Both the position numbers and the translations under genes were made by a program. This document shows, in pieces, positions 12,199 through 45,166 of a stretch of DNA of 64,000 bases. The DNA is from Dehalococcoidia bacterium. GTDB lineage: Bacteria; Chloroflexota; Dehalococcoidia; SZUA-161; SpSt-899. Position 1 is the stretch's first letter. The number at the start of each line of letters is the position of its first letter. The notes beneath the pieces are model-generated. The model did not search any database, was not told the DNA's origin, and saw nothing but the letters and a program-made list of their open reading frames with translations. Location of the stretch: assembly GCA_046498265.1 (NCBI GenBank), contig JAWOBB010000041.1, forward strand, positions 18,362-82,361, read 5' to 3'.

Positions 12199-14765
12199 GT
12201 GGTGCCACCGCAAATATCAGAGGAATACGAAAAAGCATACAAAAAAGAATTCACGCCTGATACCAGACGTTCGGCCTGGCTGATGCTGAAAAACATATTC
12301 CGGCACCCGGGCCTCTTCTCACGTACACTTCGCAAACACGATAATCTGGAAAATCACTTCGATGAATATGCCCCGAGAGTTTCGTTCGGGCGCAGCGACC
12401 ATCCCCTGGATGACCTGGGCCCCATGTCAAGCCCGTTTACCGCGATTCCCAAGTTGTACTTTCGCAAGTCCGAATCGGTGCTGAGCGTTCATCTTAAAGA
12501 AAAGCAGGGCAACCGGTTTGTATTCGAAGCCAGAACCTTCAACATCTTCAAGCTGATAAAGCCGGATTCCTTCTACAAGCACGTTTACGAATACCATGAA
12601 AAAACACCTTACAAAATCCGTCACCTGTGCATCGATATTCTTCGTGAGGATGCCTATCGTGTCCGGCTCCAGCCATCACCTGAATTCGACGATATCTACA
12701 CCCCGATGGTGGTCAATGATATCGAAGATGAAACCTGTCAGGTGAATCTCGAAGAAGACGAAGTTTGCTATCGGCTGAAAACAAAAAAACTTGCCTTGCA
12801 TATTTGCAAAAACGACTTCCGAATCGAGCTCTATGATGCTGCCGGCAACAGGATTACCCGCAGCGGCGGCCGCACCGACAACGGCTTCGGGGTGGCTTTC
12901 GATGCCTATCCGCTGGGTTTCATCAAGGATAAACGTCACAGGCGCTGGTACGCGGTGGAATCCTTCGAGCTCTCCCATGATGAGTCGATCTACGGACTGG
13001 GGGAGCATTTCGGCCGTATCAATAAAGTAGGGGAAACCCTGCGTCTCTGGATTCATGAGGGAACCGGAAACACCAGCGGCCGTATCTACAAATCCGTGCC
13101 CTTCTACATGAGCACCCGCGGTTACGGGGTGTTTTTCAACCAGACCCACCCGATGACTTTCTGGGTGGGCACGAAAGAGAAGTCAAAAGTATACAGGTAG
13201 CAGTAGAAGAAAAGAGGCTGGATTATTATCTCTTTGCCGGCAGCATCAAAGAGATACTGCGCAGCTATACCGATCTAACCGGCAAATCTCCGGTGCCACC
13301 TAAGTTTTCTTTCGGTACCTGGATTTCCCGGATGTCCTATCTTACCCAACAAGAGGTCCTTGAGGTTGCCAGAATACTCAGAGATAGCGAGTTTCCTGCA
13401 GATGTGATCCATATTGACGTTCGGTGGTTTACCGAAGGCTGGAGGTGTGACTGGCGATTTGATCCAGCCACTTTCCCTTCCCCCGAAGATATGTGCCGGC
13501 AACTGCATGAGCAGGGGTTCCATGTGTCTGTCTGGCAGGAACCTTACGTATTAAAAGGAACGGAACCCTGGAAGGAAGCTCGTCGAGGCAAGTTTCTGGC
13601 TAAAGTCAAATCGCCTTTTATTTTCGTCGGGCAGTTTGAAGCGGCCCCTATCGATTTCACCAATCCGGAGGCTATTCGGTGGTATCAGCAACAGCTCATA
13701 AAACCGCTCCTAGAGATGGGAATCGACGTCATCAAGGCCGATTTCGGAGAAGGCATCCCCCCGGATATGCAATTTGCCAAAGACAACGGGCATGCGCTGC
13801 ACAATGTATATCCGCTGCTGTACCAAAAAGCCGCTTATGAGATAACGGCCGAGGTGCATGGTGAAGAAAACGCCATGGTCTGGGGACGGAGCGCTTATGC
13901 CGGCTCGCAACGCTATCCGGTCCAGTGGAGCGGGGATAACGCGGCCAGCTTTGGTTCCATGCAGTCCTCACTGCGCGGCGGATTGTGTTACGGCCTCAGC
14001 GGATTCACTTATTGGAGCCAGGATACGGGCGGATTTACCGGGGAACCTGCGGATGAAGTGGAAATCCGCTGGACTCAGCTTTCCATCTTTCAATCCCATA
14101 TGCGCTATCACGGGTGTTACCCCTTCCGGGAGCCCTGGGTTTTTTCGAAGCAAGTCCAGGATATCATGAGGGAATACCTCAACCTGCGCTATCGGCTGAT
14201 TCCCTATCTTTACAGCGAATCGATCGCCAGCGCTGCAGATGGATTGCCGTTGCTGCGCGCCATGGTTATCGATTACCAGGAAGATCGGACCACACACCAT
14301 ATCGATGACCAGTTCATGTGTGGCAGCAACATTCTTGTAGCACCGATTATGCGTGAGGGTAATGAGCGCACCTTCTATCTGCCGGAGGGGTTGTGGTATG
14401 AATTCTTTACCAGGGAATGTGTTGAAGGGAACCAGTGGATCACCCGGGAATACGATTTGACGACGATCCCGGTATGGCTAAAGGGCGGTTCGATGGTACC
14501 ATTCGGCCCGGTTGTTCAGAGTACTGCCGAACTGACGGAGCAAACTCCGCTCGAACTAGTCGTATTGCTGGATCAGCAGAACAAGGCCGGCTGTCGGTTC
14601 TATCAGGGCAAAGGGAACGCCATTGACATTACGGCCAACAGCGAAGGTGAACAGGTCCTGGTGACGATTGATGGTATCATGCCTGTAGAAAAAGTCCGGG
14701 TATTCGGGCCGAAGGGCGAGGTGGCCGACGGTAATATTGCAGTGAAGCAGGAACATATATCGTAG
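12199..14765 (+). pseudogene. GH31 alpha-glucosidase / alpha-xylosidase, reading frame interrupted near 13195-13205 (frameshift or sequencing error)
   Basis: ORF 12199..13200 carries the GH31 N-terminal beta-sandwich (YGLGEHFGRINKVGETLRLW...PFYMSTRGYGVFF). After a TAG the catalytic domain continues in another frame from ~13202 (VAVEEKRLDYYLFAGSIKEILRSYTDLTGKSPVPPKFSFGTW...IHIDVRWF...KADFGE...WSGDNAASF...); the track lists this as 13293..14765. Combined length of ~850 aa is typical for GH31. Confidence 0.6.
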
Positions 14766-20605: not shown

Positions 20606-21877
20606 TCACTCATATCTCAAAGCATCTATCGGGTTGAGGCGGGAGGCCCGGATGGCCGGATAGGTTCCGGCCACGATTCCGATGCCCACCGCCACGCCAA
20701 AGGAAAGAAAGATGTACTCGGCCTGAATGACGGGATCGATCGTCGACTGCGACATCATCGTTATCTGAGTTACCTCAAAACCCGTGAAAACGAACTCGGA
20801 AAGCAGAAAGCCCACCCCGATACCGATGATCCCGCCGATGATGCTGATGGTAGTGGCCTCAAGCAGAAACTGAATCAGAATATGGTGCCGCTTGGCGCCG
20901 ACCGCTTTGCGGATACCGATCTCCCGGGTACGCTCGGTCACCGAGACCAGCATGATGTTCATGATGCCGATGCCGGCAATGGCCAGCGCGAAGGCAGCCA
21001 CGTATGTCAGCAGGGTCTTCAAGGTGTCGCTGGTGTTCGTCTGGCTGTCAAGCAGCTCCTGCTGGTTGTAAATGGTGAAATCGGCGGATTCGCTCGCCCC
21101 CAGTTCGTGGCGTTCCTTCAGGAAAGCGGTAATCTGCTCGATAGCATCGTCGATTTTACTTTCGCTCACCACCTGAACGCCGATGCCGGTGACCAGGTCA
21201 TCACCTGAAGCAGAACGATTCGGCTGGAGGCGAAACATGGTCGTGATGGGAATGAACATCAGATTGTCGGAGGTGGAGAAAAATGACTCGCCGTCGCTGT
21301 GGAGCGCACCTATAACGGTGAACGAACGGCCCCAGGCCCGCAGCCTTTCCCCGACGGGGTTGCTGTCGCCGAAAAGGTCTTTGCTCACATTACTGCCCAG
21401 TACGCATACCAGGCTCTTGTTCTCCATATCGTACCGGCCGAAAAATTCACCAAAGGCAAGCGATTTATTCTGCCGGGCCTCAAGGAAAGTGTCAGTTGTC
21501 CCCTGAACCTGCACGTTTGCGTTCTCATTGGCTGCGATCAACTGGGTACGGGCGGCAGCATCAGGAACTACGTATTCCAGGATATCCAGTTCGGTCGACT
21601 CGGCCAGGGACAGCGCATCCTCATAGGTGAGCGTTCTGGCGCTCCCCTCAGCCCCGGTTATCAATCCCATATAGCCGGCTCCAGGCACAATGTAAAGCAA
21701 ATTAGAACCCATCTTGGTGAAATCCTCGGTCACCGACCTCTCCGATCCCTCGCCGACGGCCATCATTGAGATGATGGACCCGATCCCGATGGCCACGCCG
21801 AGGATGGTCAGAAAGGAGCGCAGCTTGTGCGCCATGATCCCGTGAAAGGCAACTATAAAAGAAGCCAGATATTTCAT
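20606..21877 (-). CDS. ABC transporter permease, MacB/FtsX family
   Basis: 423 aa; N-terminal TM helix, large periplasmic domain and C-terminal FtsX-like 3-TM bundle. Overlaps the ATPase gene by 4 nt. Confidence 0.85.
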   Translation of the reverse strand: MKYLASFIVAFHGIMAHKLRSFLTILGVAIGIGSIISMMAVGEGSERSVTEDFTKMGSNLLYIVPGAGYMGLITGAEGSARTLTYEDALSLAESTELDILEYVVPDAAARTQLIAANENANVQVQGTTDTFLEARQNKSLAFGEFFGRYDMENKSLVCVLGSNVSKDLFGDSNPVGERLRAWGRSFTVIGALHSDGESFFSTSDNLMFIPITTMFRLQPNRSASGDDLVTGIGVQVVSESKIDDAIEQITAFLKERHELGASESADFTIYNQQELLDSQTNTSDTLKTLLTYVAAFALAIAGIGIMNIMLVSVTERTREIGIRKAVGAKRHHILIQFLLEATTISIIGGIIGIGVGFLLSEFVFTGFEVTQITMMSQSTIDPVIQAEYIFLSFGVAVGIGIVAGTYPAIRASRLNPIDALRYE

Positions 21878-22551
21878 GTACCCAGCATCTCCTCGTCGCT
21901 GACCATGCCGTCGCGCAGATTGATGATGCGCCGGGCATATTCGGCTATCTCCCGCTCGTGAGTGACCATCACCACCGTAATGCCGTCGTTGCGATTCAGT
22001 TCGGCAAACATCTCCATGATTTCACGGCCGGTGCGGGTATCCAGATTCCCGGTCGGTTCGTCCGCCAGGATGATGGCAGGACCGGTGACAAGCGCCCGGG
22101 CAATGCATACCCGCTGCTGCTGGCCGCCGGAGAGCTCGTTCGGTTTGTGCCCGGCCCGGTCGGAAAGGCCGACCCGCTCCAGCGCCGCCATTGCCCGCTT
22201 CTTCCGGTCGCCTGCCCCATTGTAGATGAGCGGCAATTCCACATTGGCAAGCGCTGTGGTGCGGGCCAGCAGGTTGTAATTCTGAAATACGAACCCGAGC
22301 TTCCTGTTCCTTATCTCGGCAAGCTGGTTATCGCTCAATTTGCCGATATTGGCCCCGTCCAGCTCATAGGTTCCGGAGGACTGCTGATCCAGGCAGCCGA
22401 CGATGTTCATCAGGGTCGACTTCCCCGACCCGGAAGGCCCCATTATGGCCACCATCTCCCCCGGTCCAACCTCAACATCGACCCCCCGAAGTGCCTTCAC
22501 TTCGATCCTGCCGACTTTATAGGTCTTGGTAATACCCCGCATCCTGATCAT
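21874..22551 (-). CDS. ABC transporter ATP-binding protein (MacB/LolD-type)
   Basis: Walker A GPSGSGKST, signature LSGGQQQRVCIARAL, Walker B ILADEPTGNLD, and the YKVG...AL motif typical of the MacB-type NBD. Confidence 0.9.
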   Translation of the reverse strand: MIRMRGITKTYKVGRIEVKALRGVDVEVGPGEMVAIMGPSGSGKSTLMNIVGCLDQQSSGTYELDGANIGKLSDNQLAEIRNRKLGFVFQNYNLLARTTALANVELPLIYNGAGDRKKRAMAALERVGLSDRAGHKPNELSGGQQQRVCIARALVTGPAIILADEPTGNLDTRTGREIMEMFAELNRNDGITVVMVTHEREIAEYARRIINLRDGMVSDEEMLGT

Positions 22552-22561
22552 TTCGATCTCT

Positions 22562-24781
22562 CTACTTACCCATCATGCCGCCTATATCTTCCAATCTAAA
22601 GCTGGCGGGATCTATCCCCATATCCTCTGCCATCTCGATCAGGGCATCAATGCACCCCCGGTTTTCGATAAGCTTGTTAAGGCATTCCCGAACGTCGTCG
22701 GGGACCTCCCCGGTATCGTCATCGGCCCACTGCTCGATCTCCTCCCAGGGGATTTCGCCGCTATACTCACTCGTATCTATGCCAAACTCCTCCGCCATCC
22801 CCATCAGCTTCTCGAAACAGGGCATTAGATCCTGTAACTTGCTCATGCATTCCATTATGTCAACATCTCCACTGCCAGCAGAACCCTCCGGATTCTCCGT
22901 TACCTCGATATCCACACTGGAGACAACCTGTTCCCCCTCTTCCAGTCCTGATGTTATCTCCGTCAGCCTTCCATCGCTGAGACCGGTCTCCACCGGGCGG
23001 ACTTTCTCCTCACCGCTATTGGTAATCACCCTCACCGTCCTGTTGCCGGTGGCTCGATCCGTGTGAATTGCCGCCTTCGGCACCAGGAGAACATCCCTGG
23101 CCAGCACCGCTTCGATATCAGCGGTCACGGTCATCAGGTCCTTAAGCGGATATCCCTTCAAATCCTCGAGGGCGATCTCGACATCATAGGTAATCAGCCC
23201 GGACTGGCTTCTGCCCATAGGAGAAATGGCCGTAACCTCGCCCGTCAAGGAAGCATCGGGGAAGGCATCGACCTGAATCCGGGCCAGCTGCCCCACTTGC
23301 AATTTAGCCACATCGATCTCATCCACAACGGCGGCTATTTCCACTTTACCGGTATCTATAATCTGCATGACAATGGTATTGGCCATAATTCGATCGCCGA
23401 TATCGATATTCACCCCGGCAACAGTACCATCGAACGGGGCAACGATAACGCCATCATCGAGCTGCCCCTGAGCTTCCTCGAGGGCGATTTCAGCCTTATC
23501 TACCGCCAGTTGAAGCAACTCCTCATTCAAGCCACCTTTAGCATGGATCAGGTTACCTTGCGAAGAGGCCAGATTCGCTCTGGCATTGGCCACGTCCGCT
23601 TCTTTTTGCTCAATCTGCGCCGGGACGCTTTCGAGCTTCCTTTCGGCAACGCTCAAGTTGACTTCGGCACTACCAGTGGAAGCATCAACGTTCTCTTGAG
23701 CAAGTTGCAAAGTCACAGCAGACGTCTTAACCCCTCTCAGCAACTCCTCTTCCTGGACAGACAGACTGTACTCGCTGATCAGGTTATCGATATGGCATGA
23801 AACCAGTTCCACCCAGGCATCCCTGGCATTTTTCAGATGGTTTTTCGCACCGGCAATAGAATCAATGTCCTCCTGATCCGGAATCAAAACTTCTTCTCCG
23901 CCCTCATACCCATACCTGACACGAACCAGATCATTGATGGCCTCCGCCAGACTCGCCCTCGCTCTGGTAACAGCAAATCGCATCTGAGGGATATCGGGGT
24001 AAACGCCGGAGAGAATATCATACGCTGCTCTTACTTCAGCCCAGGCTTCATCTATTGAGTCGCCCGGCCCAGGAAGAGCGCTTTCCAGGTTATTTTCAGC
24101 TTCAATAATGTCCTCCCATAATTGCTCTTCATCCCCCAGCAACTCCAGTTCATCTGCGGGCAAATCACTTGTATTGGTAAGGAGATATTCATCCCAGCCT
24201 TCCCAGGCACTGTCAAGCCGACTTTCTGCCTCATCAATTATAAGCTCCCCCGAGTCACGGGTAGCTTCAAGTTCACTGGCAGCACTCTCCACCTCGGTCT
24301 CAGCATCGGAGATACCGAACTGCCTGGACTGATCGAGTGCAATCTCGGCAGCACTCAGCGAAGCCTCAGCACTGCTCACTGCCGCTTCCGCCTCCAGAAT
24401 GCTGGCATCCTGATGGAACTGTGCCAGGTTTATTTCCGCCGTGCGCAGGTCAGCCTGGACTCCGGCGAGAACCCTTCGAAGCGAATCGGCCTTAAGCCCG
24501 GCCACTACCTCGCCCTCTTTCACCTCGTCGCCGAGCTCCACATTCAGTTCCTCAACGGTTCCATTCACCCCGAAAGATAAACCGGCCCGATGCGGCATGG
24601 AGATATTCCCCGGGATACTGACCCTGCTGATGAGATCCCCTCTTTTGGCTTCAACGGTCGGGGGTCGGCTTGATCCGGGGGAAGATGCATCGGCCCCGTC
24701 ATCACCATTGCAGGCAGTTAAGCCGGCCAGCGCCATGACCAGGATGATGAGAAAAGTAATTGCTTCTTTCCGGTAATTCAT
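22562..24781 (-). CDS. Efflux periplasmic adaptor (HlyD/MacA membrane-fusion family), lipoprotein, unusually long with a C-terminal duplicated Cys-pair module
   Basis: Start set at MNYRKEAITFLIILVMALAGLTAC (lipobox LTAC) preceded by GGGAGG. Long coiled-coil hairpin, beta-barrel/MP domains, then about 110 extra residues containing two tandem ~25-aa repeats: ECMSKLQDLMPCFEKLMGMAEEFGID and ECLNKLIENRGCIDALIEMAEDMGID. Confidence 0.8.
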   Translation of the reverse strand: MNYRKEAITFLIILVMALAGLTACNGDDGADASSPGSSRPPTVEAKRGDLISRVSIPGNISMPHRAGLSFGVNGTVEELNVELGDEVKEGEVVAGLKADSLRRVLAGVQADLRTAEINLAQFHQDASILEAEAAVSSAEASLSAAEIALDQSRQFGISDAETEVESAASELEATRDSGELIIDEAESRLDSAWEGWDEYLLTNTSDLPADELELLGDEEQLWEDIIEAENNLESALPGPGDSIDEAWAEVRAAYDILSGVYPDIPQMRFAVTRARASLAEAINDLVRVRYGYEGGEEVLIPDQEDIDSIAGAKNHLKNARDAWVELVSCHIDNLISEYSLSVQEEELLRGVKTSAVTLQLAQENVDASTGSAEVNLSVAERKLESVPAQIEQKEADVANARANLASSQGNLIHAKGGLNEELLQLAVDKAEIALEEAQGQLDDGVIVAPFDGTVAGVNIDIGDRIMANTIVMQIIDTGKVEIAAVVDEIDVAKLQVGQLARIQVDAFPDASLTGEVTAISPMGRSQSGLITYDVEIALEDLKGYPLKDLMTVTADIEAVLARDVLLVPKAAIHTDRATGNRTVRVITNSGEEKVRPVETGLSDGRLTEITSGLEEGEQVVSSVDIEVTENPEGSAGSGDVDIMECMSKLQDLMPCFEKLMGMAEEFGIDTSEYSGEIPWEEIEQWADDDTGEVPDDVRECLNKLIENRGCIDALIEMAEDMGIDPASFRLEDIGGMMGK

Positions 24782-24982
24782 CGGTTTACCTCCCTGGCTT
24801 CCGCAAGATGCCTGATTCCCCATGGAGATCGCCACGGCGTCATCAGGACGCCTCGTGATGACAGCTTTTTATGCCATTCCCGCCCCATATTAACAATCAT
24901 ACATCTTTATCTAACCATAGCAGGACAAATCTGTCATGAAAAGGAGAAAACGGACGGGGAAAAACCGGGTTCCATCAGGAAG

Positions 24983-25357
24983 CTATTCAATTTGTGAAGT
25001 CGAGCCGCGCCGGGATTTTATAAATCTCCTGGCCAGGTAAAACGCTGCGGCTATCAGGGTAATAACGATTATATCAAGAACCGCATTGGTGCCGGTGACC
25101 TGGACATCGAGCGCCAGGTTGAGGGCAAACATACTCAATGTTACCAGCGCAATGGACAGGCCGACCGAGATAACTGCTCTCTCCAGGAAATTCACTTGTT
25201 TCGAGGAAAAGAACACGAAGGACCAGGCCAGGCCGGGAACAAAGAAAATCAAAACGACTGCCAGGATCGCCCTGATAACCGGTACATGGTCAAGGCATGA
25301 AGACACAGAGCTACTGATATCACCAAGGCAACAGAGAGGAGTGGCAAGGTATTCCAT
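24983..25357 (-). CDS. Small integral membrane protein (hypothetical)
   Basis: 124 aa, 3-4 predicted TM helices, basic C-terminus; co-directional with the efflux operon. Confidence 0.4.
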   Translation of the reverse strand: MEYLATPLCCLGDISSSVSSCLDHVPVIRAILAVVLIFFVPGLAWSFVFFSSKQVNFLERAVISVGLSIALVTLSMFALNLALDVQVTGTNAVLDIIVITLIAAAFYLARRFIKSRRGSTSQIE

Positions 25358-25405
25358 TCTGCATCCTCTTAAACTCAGCCCGCCGATGAGTAACGCCGGG
25401 CCGGA

Positions 25406-25720
25406 TTAACCCTCCATTTCTTCATCTTCCCCAAGATACTCCTCGTCACTGAAGGTGCCTGCCTCACGTCCCTGATAAACGGTTACCACAAAATCCTCCC
25501 GGGGAACATCGGAGGAAAGCACCAGTTCCTCGTCTATCAGGTTTATCAATTCCCGGACCTCTTCGGCGGTCAGGTTTTCCCCCACGCAAAGGGTGGCATT
25601 GACGATGCTTGAGGTGAAATGCAGGTCTAATCGCCCCACTATTTGCTCTTCGCCGACGGTGATCACATATGCCTCCGAATAGGGAGTGCGGCATTCCCTC
25701 TCAAATCTATATTCAGCCAT
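25406..25720 (-). CDS. Small acidic hypothetical protein
   Basis: Start at MAEYRFE, preceded by GAGGGGG. Very acidic tail (DEEYLGEDEEMEG). Sits between proA and the membrane protein. Confidence 0.4.
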   Translation of the reverse strand: MAEYRFERECRTPYSEAYVITVGEEQIVGRLDLHFTSSIVNATLCVGENLTAEEVRELINLIDEELVLSSDVPREDFVVTVYQGREAGTFSDEEYLGEDEEMEG

Positions 25721-25753
25721 GGTTTTCCCCCTCTCGAATTTCATCTCTTATAT

Positions 25754-27049
25754 CTACTCAAAATCCTTCTGAAGGTGCCGGTGAGTGAAGGTTTTACCGC
25801 CCTCGCCCGAGTATTCGGCTACCGTCTGCCCGCTGCCCACAAGCCGCCACTTGTAAATAACCATTCCCTCCAGTCCCACGGGCCCGCGAGCATGAATTTT
25901 GTTGGTACTGATGCCGACCTCCGCTCCCAGCCCGTACCGGAACCCGTCGCTGAACCGGCTGCTGCAGTTCATAAACACGCCCGCCGAATCCACATAATCC
26001 ATAAATCTTATTCCCCGGGCCTTCTCGGAGGTGACGATCACATCAGTGTGGCCTGAGCCGTAGCGATTGATATGCTCTATGGCTTCATCGAGGCTGTCCA
26101 CTATCTTGATGGAGAGAATCAGGTCGAGATATTCGGTGGACCAGTCCTCTTCCGTCGCCGCTTGGACATCGATAACCTGCGCTGTGCGCTCACAGCCCCG
26201 CAGTTCGACGCCCTTCTCCTCGAGGGCCTCTTTGACCTGCGGCAGGAATACTGCGGCGATATCCTGATGCACCAGCAGCGTCTCCACGGCATTGCAGACC
26301 GCCACGTACTGGGTTTTGCTGTCGACGGTCACCCTGACGGCCATCTCGATTTCCGCCTCCCTGTCCACATAAACATGGCATATCCCGTCGGCGTGCCCCA
26401 GAACGGGGATATTGGTATTCTGCATGATATGCCGGACGAACTCGTTGCTGCCCCTGGGGATAACCAAATCAATATACTCGTCCAGCCCCAGCATCTCGGC
26501 AACATCGGAGCGCGCCTCCAGGAGTGCCAGCCACCCCGCCGGCATGCCGGCCTCGACACTGGCCTGATTGATGATGTCCGTCAGGATGCGGTTGGTACTG
26601 GCTGCCTCGCTGCCGCCCTTCATAAGCACCGCATTGCCGCTCTTCAGACACAGAGAAGATATTTGAACCAGGGCATCGGGCCTCGATTCGAAAACGATGC
26701 CTACAACCCCGATAGGACAGCTCACCTGATAAAGCTCCAGCCCTTCGTCCAGTTCCATGGCGCTCAGGGTTATGCCCACCGGATCGGGCAGGCCGATCAG
26801 GCTTTTCAGCCCCTCGCAGACCTCATTGATTTTGTCCTCTTCGAACTTCAGCCTCTTCAGTAAAGGGGCAGCCAGATTCTCGCTTTCGGCTTTCTCCATA
26901 TCGGCCCGATTGGCAGCGATGATATCTGCTCTACGCCTCTCCAGTTCCTCGGCTACCCTTTCGAGAGCTTTGTTCTTGATATCTATCGAGACGACCGCCA
27001 TGGGGATCGAGGCTTGCCTTGCCAGTCGTGCCCTCTGTTTCGTATCCAT
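25754..27049 (-). CDS. proA: Gamma-glutamyl phosphate reductase
   Basis: 431 aa aldehyde-dehydrogenase-fold ProA; region VCNAVETLLVH consistent with the catalytic Cys. Confidence 0.9.
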   Translation of the reverse strand: MDTKQRARLARQASIPMAVVSIDIKNKALERVAEELERRRADIIAANRADMEKAESENLAAPLLKRLKFEEDKINEVCEGLKSLIGLPDPVGITLSAMELDEGLELYQVSCPIGVVGIVFESRPDALVQISSLCLKSGNAVLMKGGSEAASTNRILTDIINQASVEAGMPAGWLALLEARSDVAEMLGLDEYIDLVIPRGSNEFVRHIMQNTNIPVLGHADGICHVYVDREAEIEMAVRVTVDSKTQYVAVCNAVETLLVHQDIAAVFLPQVKEALEEKGVELRGCERTAQVIDVQAATEEDWSTEYLDLILSIKIVDSLDEAIEHINRYGSGHTDVIVTSEKARGIRFMDYVDSAGVFMNCSSRFSDGFRYGLGAEVGISTNKIHARGPVGLEGMVIYKWRLVGSGQTVAEYSGEGGKTFTHRHLQKDFE

Positions 27050-27086: not shown

Positions 27087-28223
27087 TCAGGAAATAACCA
27101 GGTTATCCCGATGCACCACTTCCTCGCCGTATCCATAACCCAGTACCGATTCAATTTTATCAGACCGTACTCCCATGATTTTCTTAATATCGGACGAACT
27201 GTAATCGGCGATGCCCACCGCAATCCTGTCGCCCTCAGCATCCGTGATCTCCACCATATCGCCCCTTGCGAACCTGCCTTTGACGTCCACAACCCCGGCC
27301 GGCAAAAGGCTCGTGTTCTGCCCGCGCAAAGCATCCACCGCTCCGGCATCGACGACAATGTGCCCATTCGCCGGCTGGCTGAGCATCCAGCGCTGGCGGC
27401 TCTCCAGATTGGAAGTGACGGCCGGGAAAAAGGTGCCCAGCGCCTCTCCGGAGACAAGCCTCATTATGACATCTGGCTCGGAACCTGAGGCGATCACCAC
27501 CGAGGTTCCTGAGGTCATGGCCATCCTGGCAGCCTCGATCTTAGTGGCCATCCCGCCGGTGCCTCCCGCCACAGCAGTTCCCCGGGCAAAGCGCTCTATC
27601 GATTTATCAATCTTCTCCACCCTGGGAATGAGTTCAGCTTTGGGATTTCGGGCCGGATCGGCGGTGTAGAGACCGGCCACGTCGCTGAGGATGATGAGTA
27701 AATCGGCATCGACCAGATTGGAAACCAGGGCAGATAGATTATCGTTGTCGCCGAAGGTCAACCCCTCAAGCTCCTCGACGAAGACCACGTCGTTCTCGTT
27801 GACGATGGGCACCACCCCCATCCCCAGCAGCGCCAGCAGGGTATTGCGCGCGTTGAGATAGCCGAGCCGATTGAGGATATCCGGCTTGGTGAGCAGAGTC
27901 TGGGCAACGGTGATGCCGTGCGCCTCAAACAACTCATCGTAGGTGTGCATCAGCCGCCCCTGGCCGACCGCTGCCATCATCTGCCGATAAGGGGTGTCCC
28001 GGCGCTTTTTCCGGCTGCCCAGACGTTCCTTGCCGGCCGCCACCGCGCCCGAAGAGACGACTATCGGCTGCAATCCCCGCTGGTGGAGTTGAGCTACCTG
28101 ATCCACCAGTCCACTCACCCTTTTACGTGAAAGCCTGGGTTTACTCCCCGTGATGAGATTGGTTCCCAGCTTAATCACCACACGATGATAAGCGGGGGAG
28201 CCTGATTTACCTTTCTTCACCAT
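27087..28223 (-). CDS. proB: Glutamate 5-kinase with C-terminal PUA domain
   Basis: 378 aa; amino-acid kinase fold (VVIKLGTNLIT...) plus a PUA domain. Confidence 0.9.
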   Translation of the reverse strand: MVKKGKSGSPAYHRVVIKLGTNLITGSKPRLSRKRVSGLVDQVAQLHQRGLQPIVVSSGAVAAGKERLGSRKKRRDTPYRQMMAAVGQGRLMHTYDELFEAHGITVAQTLLTKPDILNRLGYLNARNTLLALLGMGVVPIVNENDVVFVEELEGLTFGDNDNLSALVSNLVDADLLIILSDVAGLYTADPARNPKAELIPRVEKIDKSIERFARGTAVAGGTGGMATKIEAARMAMTSGTSVVIASGSEPDVIMRLVSGEALGTFFPAVTSNLESRQRWMLSQPANGHIVVDAGAVDALRGQNTSLLPAGVVDVKGRFARGDMVEITDAEGDRIAVGIADYSSSDIKKIMGVRSDKIESVLGYGYGEEVVHRDNLVIS

Positions 28224-30511: not shown

Positions 30512-30742
30512 TATAACTAACCCTCCTTTCTCAGCCTCAGCCCCATAAAAAAGAGGCCTCTGCTCGGTGCAAGGCCCCCCAAAACGACTGCTGCTACCTG
30601 TTTCTCAAGTAGCTGAAGTGAAAGGTCGGCACCTCGGCAGGTAGTTCTTAAGCTTATTCAAGCGCCTGCTGTCTTCAGTATGACCTGCGTATTATCCCTG
30701 ATCCTTTGTGTTTATGTTTCCCTCCGATAAAAGCTTACGATA
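30512..30742 (-). promoter_or_regulatory. rplJ 5' leader (candidate L10-leader autoregulatory RNA)
   Basis: A 230-nt untranslated gap between rplA and rplJ at the position where bacteria carry the L10(L12)4-binding leader. Structure not verified. Confidence 0.35.
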
Positions 30743-38153: not shown

Positions 38154-38891
38154 TCAATCCACCATCTGCCCCATCGGAACAAGCCTGACCTGGCCCCAGG
38201 CACCCATCCTGTCATCTTTGATGATCAGAATTCCTTTCAGGGAATCAATACCTTGCGCCAGCTCTATTCCTTTCTCAATATCCCCCAACTCTTTGACGAC
38301 GTTACCGGCAGCAGTAGCCACGGCATCGGCCAGCGCCGCCGATTGGGCCAGAACAATCACGGCATCAGCTTTGCCCAAACTTAGAGAATGGCCCACGGTT
38401 CCTGAGGAAGTGCAAATTCCCATAGGCGTTTGGTCGGGTTCGATCTCCAGGGCAAGCCTGCCGCTCAAAGGAGAATCACCGGCATAAATACCAACTGTAC
38501 GTTTTCGTTTGGTCTGAAGAAAGATATCCCCTCCGTTTTCAACGATCAACTCCAATGAGAAGGGTAAAAGCTCTTTCCCCACCGCTTCGGCGATGGCCCC
38601 GGCTACCGCCGCCATTGGCCCAAGTGAAACCGCTTCTGTGACACGGGACATTTCTTTAACAATCAACGGAGCATCATCCTGCACAGCGATTGGCCCAAGA
38701 GAGGTAAGAAACAAAGGATTTCGGGCGATGTATCCTTCAATGGCCCCTCGATATTTGTCAACCACCTTTTTTGCCTTTCGCCTCAGGTTGCGGCGGGCAC
38801 GGATACGCAGGTCAGTTTCTCCGACGGCCACATCAAAAGAAACCAGGTCAGTATCCTTAACCCAGTGGCGATAGGTTCGCGGCTGATACAT
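38154..38891 (-). CDS. UPF0280 / ApbE-like family protein (COG2122-like, putative)
   Basis: 245 aa. Assignment rests on recalled resemblance to archaeal UPF0280 proteins and on its position next to the DUF39 / NIL-ferredoxin pair. Confidence 0.4.
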   Translation of the reverse strand: MYQPRTYRHWVKDTDLVSFDVAVGETDLRIRARRNLRRKAKKVVDKYRGAIEGYIARNPLFLTSLGPIAVQDDAPLIVKEMSRVTEAVSLGPMAAVAGAIAEAVGKELLPFSLELIVENGGDIFLQTKRKRTVGIYAGDSPLSGRLALEIEPDQTPMGICTSSGTVGHSLSLGKADAVIVLAQSAALADAVATAAGNVVKELGDIEKGIELAQGIDSLKGILIIKDDRMGAWGQVRLVPMGQMVD

Positions 38892-43385: not shown

Positions 43386-43508
43386 CGAGGTTTATTCTAC
43401 TAAAAACCGCAGGACAAATCCAAGGAAGACCGGCGAATACTTTCGGGTTCGCTTGACGAAAGCTGGCGGCTCGTGTAGGCTAGTGGTGAATTCCACGAGG
43501 CAGACCGA

Positions 43509-45107
43509 ATGAAAATCCAGCTTTACGATACCACCCTGCGCGACGGGGCCCAGCAGGAAGGGATTTCCTTCTCGGTCGAGGACAAGCTCCGAATCGCCCG
43601 CAAGCTCGATGAGCTGGGGGTTCATTTCATCGAGGGGGGATGGCCGGGGTCGAATCCCAAAGACACCGAGTTCTTCCGTCGATTGCGGGAGGTGAAATTC
43701 GCCAATTCCGTCCCGGTTGCCTTCGGCAGCACCCGCCGTCCCGATTCCTCGGCGGAGGCCGATGCCAATCTCAAAAGCCTGCTTGATGCCAAAACTCAGG
43801 TGGTCACCCTGGTAGGTAAGGGCTCGGCCGAACAGGTTAAAAAGGTCCTCAAGACCAGCCTGAAGGAAAACCTGAATATGGTTGCCGATTCCATCGGCTA
43901 TCTCAAATCCAGGGGAATGAAGGTCTTCTTCGATGCGGAGCATTTCTTCGACGGCTACAAGGACGATGCTCAATATTCCCGAAGCGTAGTAAAGACCGCT
44001 GCCTCCGCCGGTGCCGATTGCATCGTCCTGTGCGATACCAACGGGGGTAGCCTGCCTGAGGACATTGCCTCGATTTGCTCCGCTTCCAGGGGAAAAGGAA
44101 TAAGGCTGGGTATCCATGCCCACAACGATTCGGAGCTGGCGGTAGCCAACACCCTGGCGGCGGTGCAGACAGGCGTCAGGCACGTCCAGGGCACGGTCAA
44201 CGGATATGGCGAGCGGTGCGGCAATGCCAATCTCTGCTCTATAATACCGGCGCTTCAGCTTAAACTGGGAATAGATTGCATATCTGAGGAGCAGCTTGCC
44301 CGCATCACCGAGGTTTCCCGTTATGTAAGCGAGGTAGCCAATCTGCTGCCGGATTCGCGCCTTCCCTACGTGGGAGCCAGCGCTTTCGGGCACAAAGCGG
44401 GGATTCACATCTCGGGGATGCTCAAGGCCAGGGAAAGTTACCAGCATATCGATCCCCTGCTGGTGGGCAACGGCAGCCGTTTGATTGTATCGGAGCTTTC
44501 CGGGATCAATACTGTCATCTATAAAGCCAAGGAGCTCGGCCTGACTCAGGCGGCCAGGAAGACGGAAGCTAAAAAGATACTGAATCAGGTAAAGACTCTG
44601 GAGAGCCAGGGGTTTACCTATGATAATGCCGAGGCCTCCTTCGAGCTGCTGCTGCGCCGAACTCAGCCGGGGTACCAGCCACCCTTTGAGCTGGTCGATT
44701 TTATGGTGGTGGTGGAGAGACAACGGCGCGCTCCCACTATAAAAGAGCAGGGAACACTGTCGGAGGCAATGGTCAAGGTCAGGGTGGGCGAAGATATCCA
44801 TCACACCGCCGCCGAGGGCAACGGGCCGGTCAACGCCCTTGACGAGGCCCTGCGCAAGGCCCTGGGGCAGTTTTATCCCGGCCTGGTGGCGGTGAAACTG
44901 GTCGACTACAAGGTCCGCATCCTGGAAGAGAGCGAGGGGACGGAGGCCAAGGTGCGGGTGCTCATCGAATCCAGTGACGGCGAGCATCAGTGGCACACGG
45001 TGGGAAGCTCCACCAACATCATCGAGGCGAGCTGGATTGCCCTGGCCGACAGCATGGAATACTGGCTGCTGGACAAAGAAAACCAAAGTCGAAAAAGAAG
45101 AGGCTGA
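43509..45107 (+). CDS. cimA: (R)-citramalate synthase / 2-isopropylmalate-synthase-family enzyme
   Basis: 532 aa. N-terminus MKIQLYDTTLRDGAQQEGISFSVEDKLRIARKLDELGVHFIEGGWPGSNPKDTEFF, HxH metal-site motif, and C-terminal LeuA-dimer regulatory domain; length fits CimA. Confidence 0.75.
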   Translation: MKIQLYDTTLRDGAQQEGISFSVEDKLRIARKLDELGVHFIEGGWPGSNPKDTEFFRRLREVKFANSVPVAFGSTRRPDSSAEADANLKSLLDAKTQVVTLVGKGSAEQVKKVLKTSLKENLNMVADSIGYLKSRGMKVFFDAEHFFDGYKDDAQYSRSVVKTAASAGADCIVLCDTNGGSLPEDIASICSASRGKGIRLGIHAHNDSELAVANTLAAVQTGVRHVQGTVNGYGERCGNANLCSIIPALQLKLGIDCISEEQLARITEVSRYVSEVANLLPDSRLPYVGASAFGHKAGIHISGMLKARESYQHIDPLLVGNGSRLIVSELSGINTVIYKAKELGLTQAARKTEAKKILNQVKTLESQGFTYDNAEASFELLLRRTQPGYQPPFELVDFMVVVERQRRAPTIKEQGTLSEAMVKVRVGEDIHHTAAEGNGPVNALDEALRKALGQFYPGLVAVKLVDYKVRILEESEGTEAKVRVLIESSDGEHQWHTVGSSTNIIEASWIALADSMEYWLLDKENQSRKRRG

Positions 45108-45166
45108 GCCCCGATTAACGGGACCCAACCTCTTTCAAACTACACCTCAGGGCTTCGTCTTTGTCT

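Follow-up and report, generated by a model that had tools for sequence, protein, structure and literature searches.

In the window (the whole 64-kb stretch of DNA analysed), the minus strand carries what is, judged from sequence, a self-contained three-gene MacB-type (type VII ABC) exporter on the chromosome of an uncultured member of the Dehalococcoidia (Chloroflexota). Its adaptor lipoprotein ends in a rare tail made of two copies of a cysteine-pair unit. We give a probability of about 0.6 to the explanation that accounts best for the locus overall, in which the pump is a MacB-type exporter, the adaptor tail is a disulfide-stapled accessory domain and two small upstream genes are bystanders.

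The permease (423 residues; 20606–21877, minus strand) matches Pfam MacB_PCD (2.1e-39, residues 21–251) and FtsX (1.4e-25, residues 293–416), thus combining the FtsX-type transmembrane (TM) domain and the MacB_PCD domain of a MacB-type (type VII) permease. Between the first two of its four TM helices (TM1 and TM2) lies a large extracytoplasmic domain; PDB sequence matches are to MacB (5lil, 3.3e-48), 5nik_J (2.3e-45) and Spr0695 (5xu1_M, 4.6e-42). The adjacent gene encodes the cognate ABC ATPase expected of a MacB-type transporter (225 residues; 21874–22551, minus strand; Pfam ABC_tran, 2.2e-33), whose best NCBIfam similarities are to the MacB NBD, LolD and DarD. The ATPase and permease genes overlap by 4 nt and are separate and unfused. 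All three proteins have matches in Pfam, NCBIfam and PDB sequences that bear out the MacAB-like operon proposed in the first-pass annotation. The ORFs of permease, ATPase, adaptor, the two small genes, proA (25754–27049) and proB (27087–28223) were all located on the minus strand. Promoter and terminator scans of the locus gave signals at or under chance level, and Rfam has no match inside or close to the operon. No conserved small peptide gene, a candidate substrate, was found adjoining the pump. The named homologues and the genome loci all belong to Dehalococcoidia or Chloroflexota metagenome-assembled genomes (MAGs).

The order of adaptor, separate ATPase and permease is that of Spr0693-Spr0694-Spr0695 from Streptococcus pneumoniae (PDB 5XU0/5XU1) and of YknXYZ from Bacillus, and all three pumps belong to cells without a classical outer membrane. 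Relatives of the adaptor carry precomputed Pfam labels for YknX-type barrel and C-terminal domains. The adaptor is around twice as long as Spr0693 or YknX, having in addition a 128-residue insertion and a 102-residue tail, and unlike YknXYZ the locus has no YknW-like fourth component. MacAB-TolC of Escherichia coli (PDB 5NIK) has the same permease fold family (MacB_PCD + FtsX) and the same adaptor domain set, but E. coli MacB is a single chain of ATPase and permease. MacAB-TolC also has an outer-membrane factor, whereas no such gene was found among the 28 proteins scanned in the window, the PRK and GT4 neighbours included, or in related loci; within that scope, the partner of a tripartite TolC-dependent pump is absent. 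A literature search on Dehalococcoidia MacB found nothing relevant.

The adaptor gene (22562–24781, minus strand) encodes a membrane-fusion (periplasmic adaptor) lipoprotein of 739 residues. An alternative GTG start would extend the ORF to 22562–24835. The likely start is the ATG at 24781, since a GGGAGG ribosome-binding site precedes it and the identical 739-residue protein is already recorded (P0001). The protein matches TIGR01730 (RND_mfp; 4.1e-38, 131 bits against a cutoff of 94.9) as well as HlyD_D23, HlyD_3 and Biotin_lipoyl_2. Profile and structure-sequence matches together place in it the lipoyl, beta-barrel and membrane-proximal domains of a HlyD/MacA adaptor, with a putative hairpin set into the lipoyl domain. 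The signal peptide read from the sequence (residues 1–24; 24710–24781, minus strand) ends in the lipobox L-T-A-C (residues 21–24), and the adaptor is in all likelihood lipidated, as had been suggested. In the alignment, most relatives have a cysteine equivalent to the lipobox position; it is missing from two (P0005 and P0008).

The adaptor had also been described as atypically long. This holds against characterised adaptors but not within the Chloroflexota, where 500–900 residues are common: about 44 of 120 relatives among the matches listed have at least 600 residues, and some reach 914. E. coli MacA has 371 residues and terminates at the membrane-proximal domain. The solved adaptors used for comparison total 273–478 residues, besides one 695-residue fusion construct. 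The span between the lipoyl half-motifs (approximately residues 93–447), at most a putative continuous coiled-coil hairpin, is around three times its length in solved adaptors and contains Pro/Gly-rich breaks. Within the alpha-hairpin region, alignment locates the 128-residue insertion (residues 208–335; 23777–24160, minus strand), which among the aligned sequences is found only in this adaptor and in P0002. Long adaptors are normal in the Chloroflexota, and what is distinctive in the length of this one is the extra insertion. The adaptor has a pI of 4.1; most proteins of the window have a pI of about 5, so a proteome-wide tendency accounts for only part of its acidity. "Salt-in" halophily was considered as the source of this acidity and rejected on the same comparison.

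Matches of the adaptor to PDB entries (MacA, EmrA, MexJ and Spr0693) stop at about residue 622; that to 5xu0_A has an E-value of 5e-07 and that to MacA spans residues 427–620. A variable G/S-rich linker follows in the alignment, which places the tail after the last conserved adaptor domain. Alignment, AlphaFold2 (AF2) modelling and HMM searching delimit the tail as a C-terminal orphan domain of 102 residues (residues 638–739; 22565–22870, minus strand). Aligning its two halves with hhalign gave a probability of 99% and an E-value of 8.5e-18 over 34 columns, defining repeat 1 (DIMECMSKLQDLMPCFEKLMGMAEEFGIDTSEYS; 22760–22861, minus strand) and repeat 2 (DVRECLNKLIENRGCIDALIEMAEDMGIDPASFR; 22595–22696, minus strand). 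The two tandem cysteine-pair repeats noted earlier are therefore real: in the tail a unit of about 34 residues has been duplicated in tandem, with one CX9C pair per copy. In a nine-sequence alignment Cys645, Cys655, Cys700, Cys710 and Trp679 are invariant, as is an MAExMGxD motif.

When only the tail was used as query, a word-indexed search for homologues returned no match, hence the need for an exhaustive profile search. Among 1.84 billion representatives this identified seven real clusters. Twelve distinct tails are now known, every one of them at the C-terminus of a Dehalococcoidia adaptor. The same search gave no genuine stand-alone copy; two short matches (192 and 446 residues) retain adaptor sequence before the tail. 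These data bear directly on the possibility that the long ORF is an artefact in which a missed stop, a frameshift or an assembly error has joined two genes. Assembly errors do occur in these MAGs, as seen in P0121 (locus L008), the N-terminal half of which is scrambled. Against this, the ORF is uninterrupted, and adaptor and tail form a single ORF in at least 11 further sequences (43–68% identity) from independent assemblies, with ENA, JGI, NCBI and Logan all represented; nor does the tail occur alone in the exhaustive search. Conservation refutes this possibility, and we consider an artefact extremely improbable.

The first-pass annotation had asked whether the C-terminus maps to known adaptor domains, Pfam families or solved folds. 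It matched none of these, and the tail profile retrieved nothing under an E-value of 0.04 from PDB sequences. Similarity to proteins with AEELGIDTEGKT repeats (P0129; E 3.6e-5, hhalign probability 60%) is confined to one short motif. Homology to the AVEEGxITQEQAD repeats of the DUF2680 (YckD-like) secreted protein that neighbours the operon in relatives was rejected, the hhalign probability being 1%. The tail is a genuine, conserved, very rare and previously undescribed adaptor domain.

The AF2 model of the tail is all-alpha, of moderate confidence (pLDDT 74.5), with predicted helices at tail positions 5–29, 42–49, 58–69 and 71–83. On both helices the cysteines border the hydrophobic face. Their number is even in all 12 tails (four or six), and in the two tails with extra cysteines the gain came as a pair. 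The spacing is 9/44/9 in eight tails; the others have 9/45/9, 9/42/9 and, twice, 12/44/9. None of the 12 tails contains histidine, and net charge ranges from −12 to −24. Methionine makes up 8.8% of the tail and 1.3% of the remainder of the adaptor, a seven-fold difference, and the C-terminal tip is rich in glycine and methionine (GGMMGK, GGMGGM). In the P0125 tail methionine is down to 3.6% and the MAExMG methionines are replaced. Export of the protein, the even cysteine counts, the fixed spacing, the lack of histidine, the helix-edge placement of the cysteines and the unconserved methionines of P0125 together point to disulfides. Most likely, two inter-repeat disulfides staple the repeats together as a compact helical bundle of strongly acidic character. 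Charge complementarity between tail and permease was considered and rejected, since the extracytoplasmic domain of the permease is itself acidic (net −17). Permeases that go with a tail have a TM3–TM4 loop longer by six residues.

The same residues invite a different reading, that of a metal-binding domain akin to metallochaperones, whose cysteines and methionines hold Cu(I), Ag(I) or Zn and pass the metal to the pump or sense it. The four invariant cysteines, the methionine enrichment and the Gly/Met-rich tip would all fit. So would the genomic setting in relatives, in which an OmpR-type two-component system adjoins the operon, as does a secreted DUF2680-like protein that is rich in His, Met and Cys and has a similarly Gly/Met-rich end. 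Yet in the window neither a two-component system nor a DUF2680-like gene is present, nor are HtrA and a second MacAB operon, all of which are found in relatives. The absence of histidine in 12 of 12 tails, the loss of methionines in P0125 and the arrival of additional cysteines only in pairs also argue against a metal site, as does the lack of sequence or fold likeness to any metal-binding family. We know of no MacB-type pump established as a metal exporter, which counts further against this reading.

There is a precedent in SilB of Cupriavidus metallidurans, in which a functional CusF-like domain has been added to the adaptor C-terminus (PMC4446572). The SilB domain is a beta-barrel within an RND metal pump and is also found by itself, as the protein CusF. 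In contrast, the tail is predicted to be all-alpha, has no stand-alone form, shows no sequence or fold likeness to the SilB domain and sits on an ABC pump. It has neither the small beta-barrel nor the Met/His/Trp site of CusF-like proteins; prediction gives only helices, histidine is lacking and there is no sequence match. The metal-binding reading is on balance unlikely. We note that the methionine enrichment of the tail would suit soft-metal binding too.

A further observation concerns the redox state of the exported cysteines. One related genome (L015), which has the small proBA-associated protein discussed below and no tail-bearing adaptor, encodes CODH/ACS. This suggests an anaerobic lifestyle, makes the formation of extracytoplasmic disulfides less certain and weakens the disulfide reading. 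Although L015 is not a tail carrier, probable anaerobiosis would leave exported cysteines reduced and in that respect favours metal binding.

The conserved Asp-rich loop W-A-[DN]-D-D-[TS]-G-E-V, between the predicted helices 42–49 and 58–69, raises the question of calcium. An EF-hand-like module binding Ca2+ through this loop could rigidify or regulate the pump base, and the strong negative charge of all 12 tails would be in keeping with it. Tail residues 29–74 also give a weak Pfam match to SAPC2_N, described as "EF-hand like" (E 8e-4); at 19.7 bits this lies under the curated cutoff of 27 bits. Set against the canonical 12-residue EF-hand loop (DxDxDG...E), the sequence is shifted out of register: its glycine stands at position 5 instead of 6, and position 12 lacks an acidic residue. 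Calcium binding would also leave the invariant cysteines unexplained. We regard this reading as very unlikely.

The disulfide-stapled bundle recalls the twin-CX9C (CHCH) proteins of the mitochondrial intermembrane space, which likewise carry two CX9C motifs on amphipathic helices in an oxidising or extracytoplasmic compartment. CHCH proteins have a short turn between the motifs, whereas the tail has 44 residues and an extra helix, and in two tails CX12C replaces the first CX9C. The tail has no Pfam match and no CHCH protein appears among its fold matches. A literature search on bacterial CX9C domains found nothing relevant. The tail might nevertheless be a bacterial counterpart, a redox-dependent, disulfide-stapled arm that, in six tethered copies, captures or gates substrate at the base of a MacB pump in a monoderm cell; we hold this to be rather doubtful. 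Were it true, a net charge of about −20 could trap cationic peptides or metal ions, for example, pump activity would be coupled to the extracellular redox or ionic state, and the tail would found a new family of adaptor accessory domains confined to the Dehalococcoidia.

Two small genes lie between the adaptor gene and proA. One (24983–25357, minus strand) encodes a three-TM membrane protein of 124 residues resembling the N-terminal part of DUF1616 (Pfam, 2.9e-08). The other encodes an acidic cytoplasmic protein and is a member of the proB-proA block; its first ATG would give 112 residues (25406–25744), and the conserved start at 25720 gives 104 residues (25406–25720, minus strand). Homologues of the acidic protein number 318 at E ≤ 0.001, with 59–88% identity among the 120 matches listed, and those that are named all come from Dehalococcoidia or Chloroflexota. 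Throughout the Dehalococcoidia it comes after proBA: its gene lies 12–13 bp past proB-proA in genomes that continue with hisS/hisG, CODH/ACS or transketolase genes. Homologues of the membrane protein adjoin MacAB parts in none of 22 metagenome loci and are often close to GT4 glycosyltransferases. The membrane protein stands beside the adaptor only in the window and in two related loci, L007 and L012. In another locus, L017, the proBA block is retained, with 75% identity in the membrane protein and 81% in proA, and a convergent surface-repeat gene follows the membrane protein where the window has the pump. A gap of about 200 bp separates the membrane protein gene from the adaptor gene, which has its own ribosome-binding site, the only element of this region conserved in L007 and L012. 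The suggestion that the two small proteins are co-transcribed pump components fails on the proBA association, the pump-free homologues and the separate ribosome-binding site. Both genes are, by sequence and context, bystanders of the proBA block and no part of the pump. In relatives the tail-bearing operon stays constant and its neighbours vary. The operon boundary is corrected accordingly, and a widespread proBA-linked small Dehalococcoidia protein, unrelated to efflux, is identified.

Judging by its family, the cytoplasmic ATPase would bind and hydrolyse ATP, and the long TM helices of the permease would relay this to its extracytoplasmic domain, which would pick up substrate on the outer side of the membrane and push it into the adaptor channel. 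By analogy with solved MacA/MacB complexes, the channel would be a hexamer of the lipid-anchored adaptor. Each pump would then carry six tails at the foot of the adaptor ring, next to the extracytoplasmic domain of the permease. The most likely role of the tail is that of an accessory module that captures a substrate or partner, or stabilises the base of the assembly. The insertion in the already long hairpin and the C-terminal domain are both lineage-specific additions to the adaptor.

To our knowledge, the choice of substrate by MacB-type pumps and the role of the adaptor in cells without an outer membrane are poorly understood, and most extra adaptor domains on record are those of metal RND pumps (SilB, CusB). 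The significance of the tail is bounded by its narrow distribution, in a handful of uncultured Dehalococcoidia. At about 100 residues, it is a small domain tractable for expression and testing. If the tail is indeed cysteine-stapled, the pump would be a second case of an adaptor with its own cargo-handling or regulatory module.

The ORF list places eight genes on the minus strand between 20606 and 28793. In transcription order they encode a DUF6391 protein (28793-28242), ProB (28223-27087), ProA (27049-25754), a small acidic protein (25744/25720-25406), a 124-residue membrane protein (25357-24983) and then, after a gap of about 200 bp, the long adaptor (24781-22562), an ABC ATPase (22551-21874) and a permease (21877-20606). 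Pfam and NCBIfam assign the adaptor to TIGR01730 (131 bits, above cutoff), HlyD_D23 and HlyD_3, the ATPase to ABC_tran and the permease to MacB_PCD and FtsX. Among solved structures the permease matches MacB (5lil, 3.3e-48; also 5nik) and pneumococcal Spr0695 (5xu1_M, 4.6e-42); the adaptor matches MacA, EmrA, MexJ and Spr0693, only to about residue 622. The pump is a standard exporter of the MacAB/YknXYZ type, and its adaptor is specific to the lineage. Translation of the adaptor most likely begins with the ATG at 24781, since GGGAGG precedes this codon and an identical 739-residue protein is already on record (P0001). Residues 21-24 (L-T-A-C) sit behind a hydrophobic stretch, so the signal is that of a lipoprotein. 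The factual observations of the first-pass annotation are all correct. Its reading of the adaptor as atypically long does not hold, as length is a trait of the phylum: about 44 of the 120 listed relatives have at least 600 residues and several exceed 800. Aligned with nine other relatives (seven with the C-terminal tail, two without), the adaptor and its 68%-identical homologue P0002 share an extra 128-residue insertion in the hairpin region (residues 208-335). It holds Pro/Gly-rich segments, thus one continuous coiled coil is not required. We note that in one 1.77-Mb Dehalococcoidia scaffold (JBGLNL010000001, locus L008, 9023-10309) the adaptor is intact over its C-terminal 430 residues only; the 833-residue protein called there (P0121) has an unrelated N-terminal half and probably reflects a rearrangement, a pseudogene or a join made in assembly.

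The two small genes had been proposed as possible members of the pump transcript, and comparison argues against this. Homologues of the membrane protein, a DUF1616-like protein (N-terminus of DUF1616) with three TM helices, occur in 22 metagenome loci and in none of these beside MacAB genes. Locus L017 retains the five-gene DUF6391-proB-proA-acidic-membrane block (DUF6391 is 71% identical, the other four proteins 75-85%), followed by a convergent surface-repeat protein gene where the window has the pump. GT4-type glycosyltransferases often follow the distant homologues (L017-L037) and lie within about 4 kb in 11 of the 21 distant loci, which suggests that the membrane protein is linked to envelope glycosylation rather than efflux. 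Promoter and terminator scans were uninformative on transcript limits. Comparative evidence places the probable operon boundary in the 200-bp gap (24782-24982); read-through from the proBA block into the pump may occur. Within the gap there is also an inverted repeat of 7 bp without mismatches, GTCATCA-N10-TGATGAC (24850-24885, minus strand), overlapped by a second, GGCGTC-N5-GACGCC; neither is conserved in the related loci L007 or L012.

Homologues of the adaptor, acidic protein and tail come from Dehalococcoidia / Chloroflexota metagenome-assembled genomes, and a record labelled 'MAG: Dehalococcoidia bacterium' (P0132) is 100% identical to the acidic protein. The remaining window is ordinary chromosome, with EF-Tu, ribosomal protein L1, an L10 leader, MutS and sugar catabolism genes; size and position suggest that ORFs of 1241 and 1311 residues are rpoB and rpoC. 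The Rfam L10 leader (30538-30696, minus strand) scores exactly at the gathering threshold (44 bits, E 1.8e-4); it comes shortly after the L1 gene (30743-31495), at the place where an L10 gene would be expected to follow. A family-31 glycoside hydrolase is apparently split over two plus-strand ORFs (12199-13200, N-terminal mutarotase-like domain; 13293-14765, TIM barrel and C-terminal domain), which may reflect a frameshift, loss of function as a pseudogene, or two real genes. Two minus-strand ORFs (38154-38891, 245 residues; 43392-45128, 578 residues) have no Pfam match at 1e-5; a 532-residue ORF overlaps the latter on the opposite strand, so its coding strand is uncertain.

The last 102 residues of the adaptor (638-739; 22565-22870, minus strand) form the tail, which is preceded by a Gly/Ser-rich linker whose length varies. 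Across nine aligned tails the invariant residues are Cys8, Cys18, Cys63 and Cys73 (Cys645, Cys655, Cys700 and Cys710 of the adaptor), Trp42 and several Gly, and the MAExMGxD motif is shared as well. The two halves of the alignment match each other by hhalign (probability 99%, E 8.5e-18, 34 columns), thus the tail is a true tandem duplication. Pfam gave no match (the best was a sub-threshold 'EF-hand like' SAPC2_N, 19.7 bits) and PDB sequences none. A profile search over all 1.84 billion cluster representatives returned 13 hits, seven of them genuine: five are full-length adaptors that end in the module, and in two shorter records (192 and 446 residues) adaptor sequence still precedes it. The other hits were repetitive proteins matched through one short motif. 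The Cys-pair module recurs only at adaptor C-termini, with no genuine stand-alone copy and none on other kinds of protein among these representatives. A fusion artefact, raised at first pass, was ruled out because independently assembled sequences, 43-68% identical, carry the same single ORF with its tail. In the tail-less paralogous adaptors the C-terminus is a short peptide, 'DVVDIMEKMMEGG...GGMGG', that resembles the first and last tail residues. This suggests that a short ancestral C-terminal peptide was enlarged into the module through insertion and duplication within it.

In 12 distinct tails the Cys count is always even (four in ten tails, six in two), and in the six-Cys tails the two additional Cys appear together. 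Spacing is 9/44/9 in eight of the 12, the others being 9/45/9, 9/42/9 and, twice, 12/44/9. His is absent from all 12 and net charge runs from -12 to -24. In both repeats the Cys map to predicted helices, where they border the hydrophobic face. A disulfide within one helix is impossible for Cys spaced by ten residues, but two such helices packed alongside each other can be joined by two disulfides, the design used by mitochondrial twin-CX9C proteins. As the adaptor is exported and the extra Cys are paired, these features together lead us to favour two inter-repeat disulfides, with a probability of about one half. A Cys4/Met soft-metal site is an unlikely rival, kept for three reasons. The lineage is probably anaerobic (a related Dehalococcoidia locus found via the acidic protein carries CODH/ACS); the tails are Met-rich (3.6-11.5%; nine of the window adaptor's 17 Met lie in the tail) with a Gly/Met-rich tip; and the adaptor SilB is a precedent, since it bears a metallochaperone domain at its C-terminus (PMC4446572). 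The SilB domain, a beta-barrel of the CusF type, does not resemble the tail, however, and in P0125, another homologue, the conserved MAExMG methionines are replaced.

Three related loci have two MacAB-like operons in tandem, of which the second bears the tail (L001, 1-11819; L003, 1860-11810; L005, 187-11991). The first encodes an adaptor of about 530-546 residues without the module and is decayed in L003. Ahead of both operons comes a divergent OmpR-type two-component system (HAMP-HisKA kinase and OmpR-type regulator), and after it the gene for a secreted, DUF2680-like protein that is rich in His, Met and Cys and has a Gly/Met-rich end; in L001 the two operons are separated by an HtrA-type protease gene. 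The arrangement resembles a cluster for envelope stress or detoxification. Gly/Met-rich tips (GGMGGM, GGGGMRPPM, GHGMMGMG) close three different exported proteins encoded there, recalling GroEL's GGM tail or Met-rich copper motifs. The window has no two-component system, DUF2680-like gene, first operon or HtrA protease; there, and in L007 and L012, the pump adjoins the proBA block instead. Given these differing neighbours, the three-gene operon is the only constant unit.

In solved adaptors the chain terminates in the membrane-proximal domain; a tail on a flexible linker would therefore sit at the base of the adaptor ring, beside the permease outer domain, in six copies per pump if the adaptor is hexameric like MacA. 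Compared with the permeases of the tail-less paralogous operon, the tail-associated ones have six more residues in the TM3-TM4 outer loop and two more in the outer domain (window 20606-21877, minus strand, against L001 5311-6558 and L005 6592-7842). The longer loop correlates with the tail but does not show that the two touch. Because the outer domain is acidic too, simple electrostatic docking of the acidic tail is unlikely. The twin Cys-pair domain is the only new element of the pump: real, conserved, very rare, without known relatives and confined to a few uncultured Dehalococcoidia, in which we infer that it serves the pump as an accessory in capture, docking or stabilisation.
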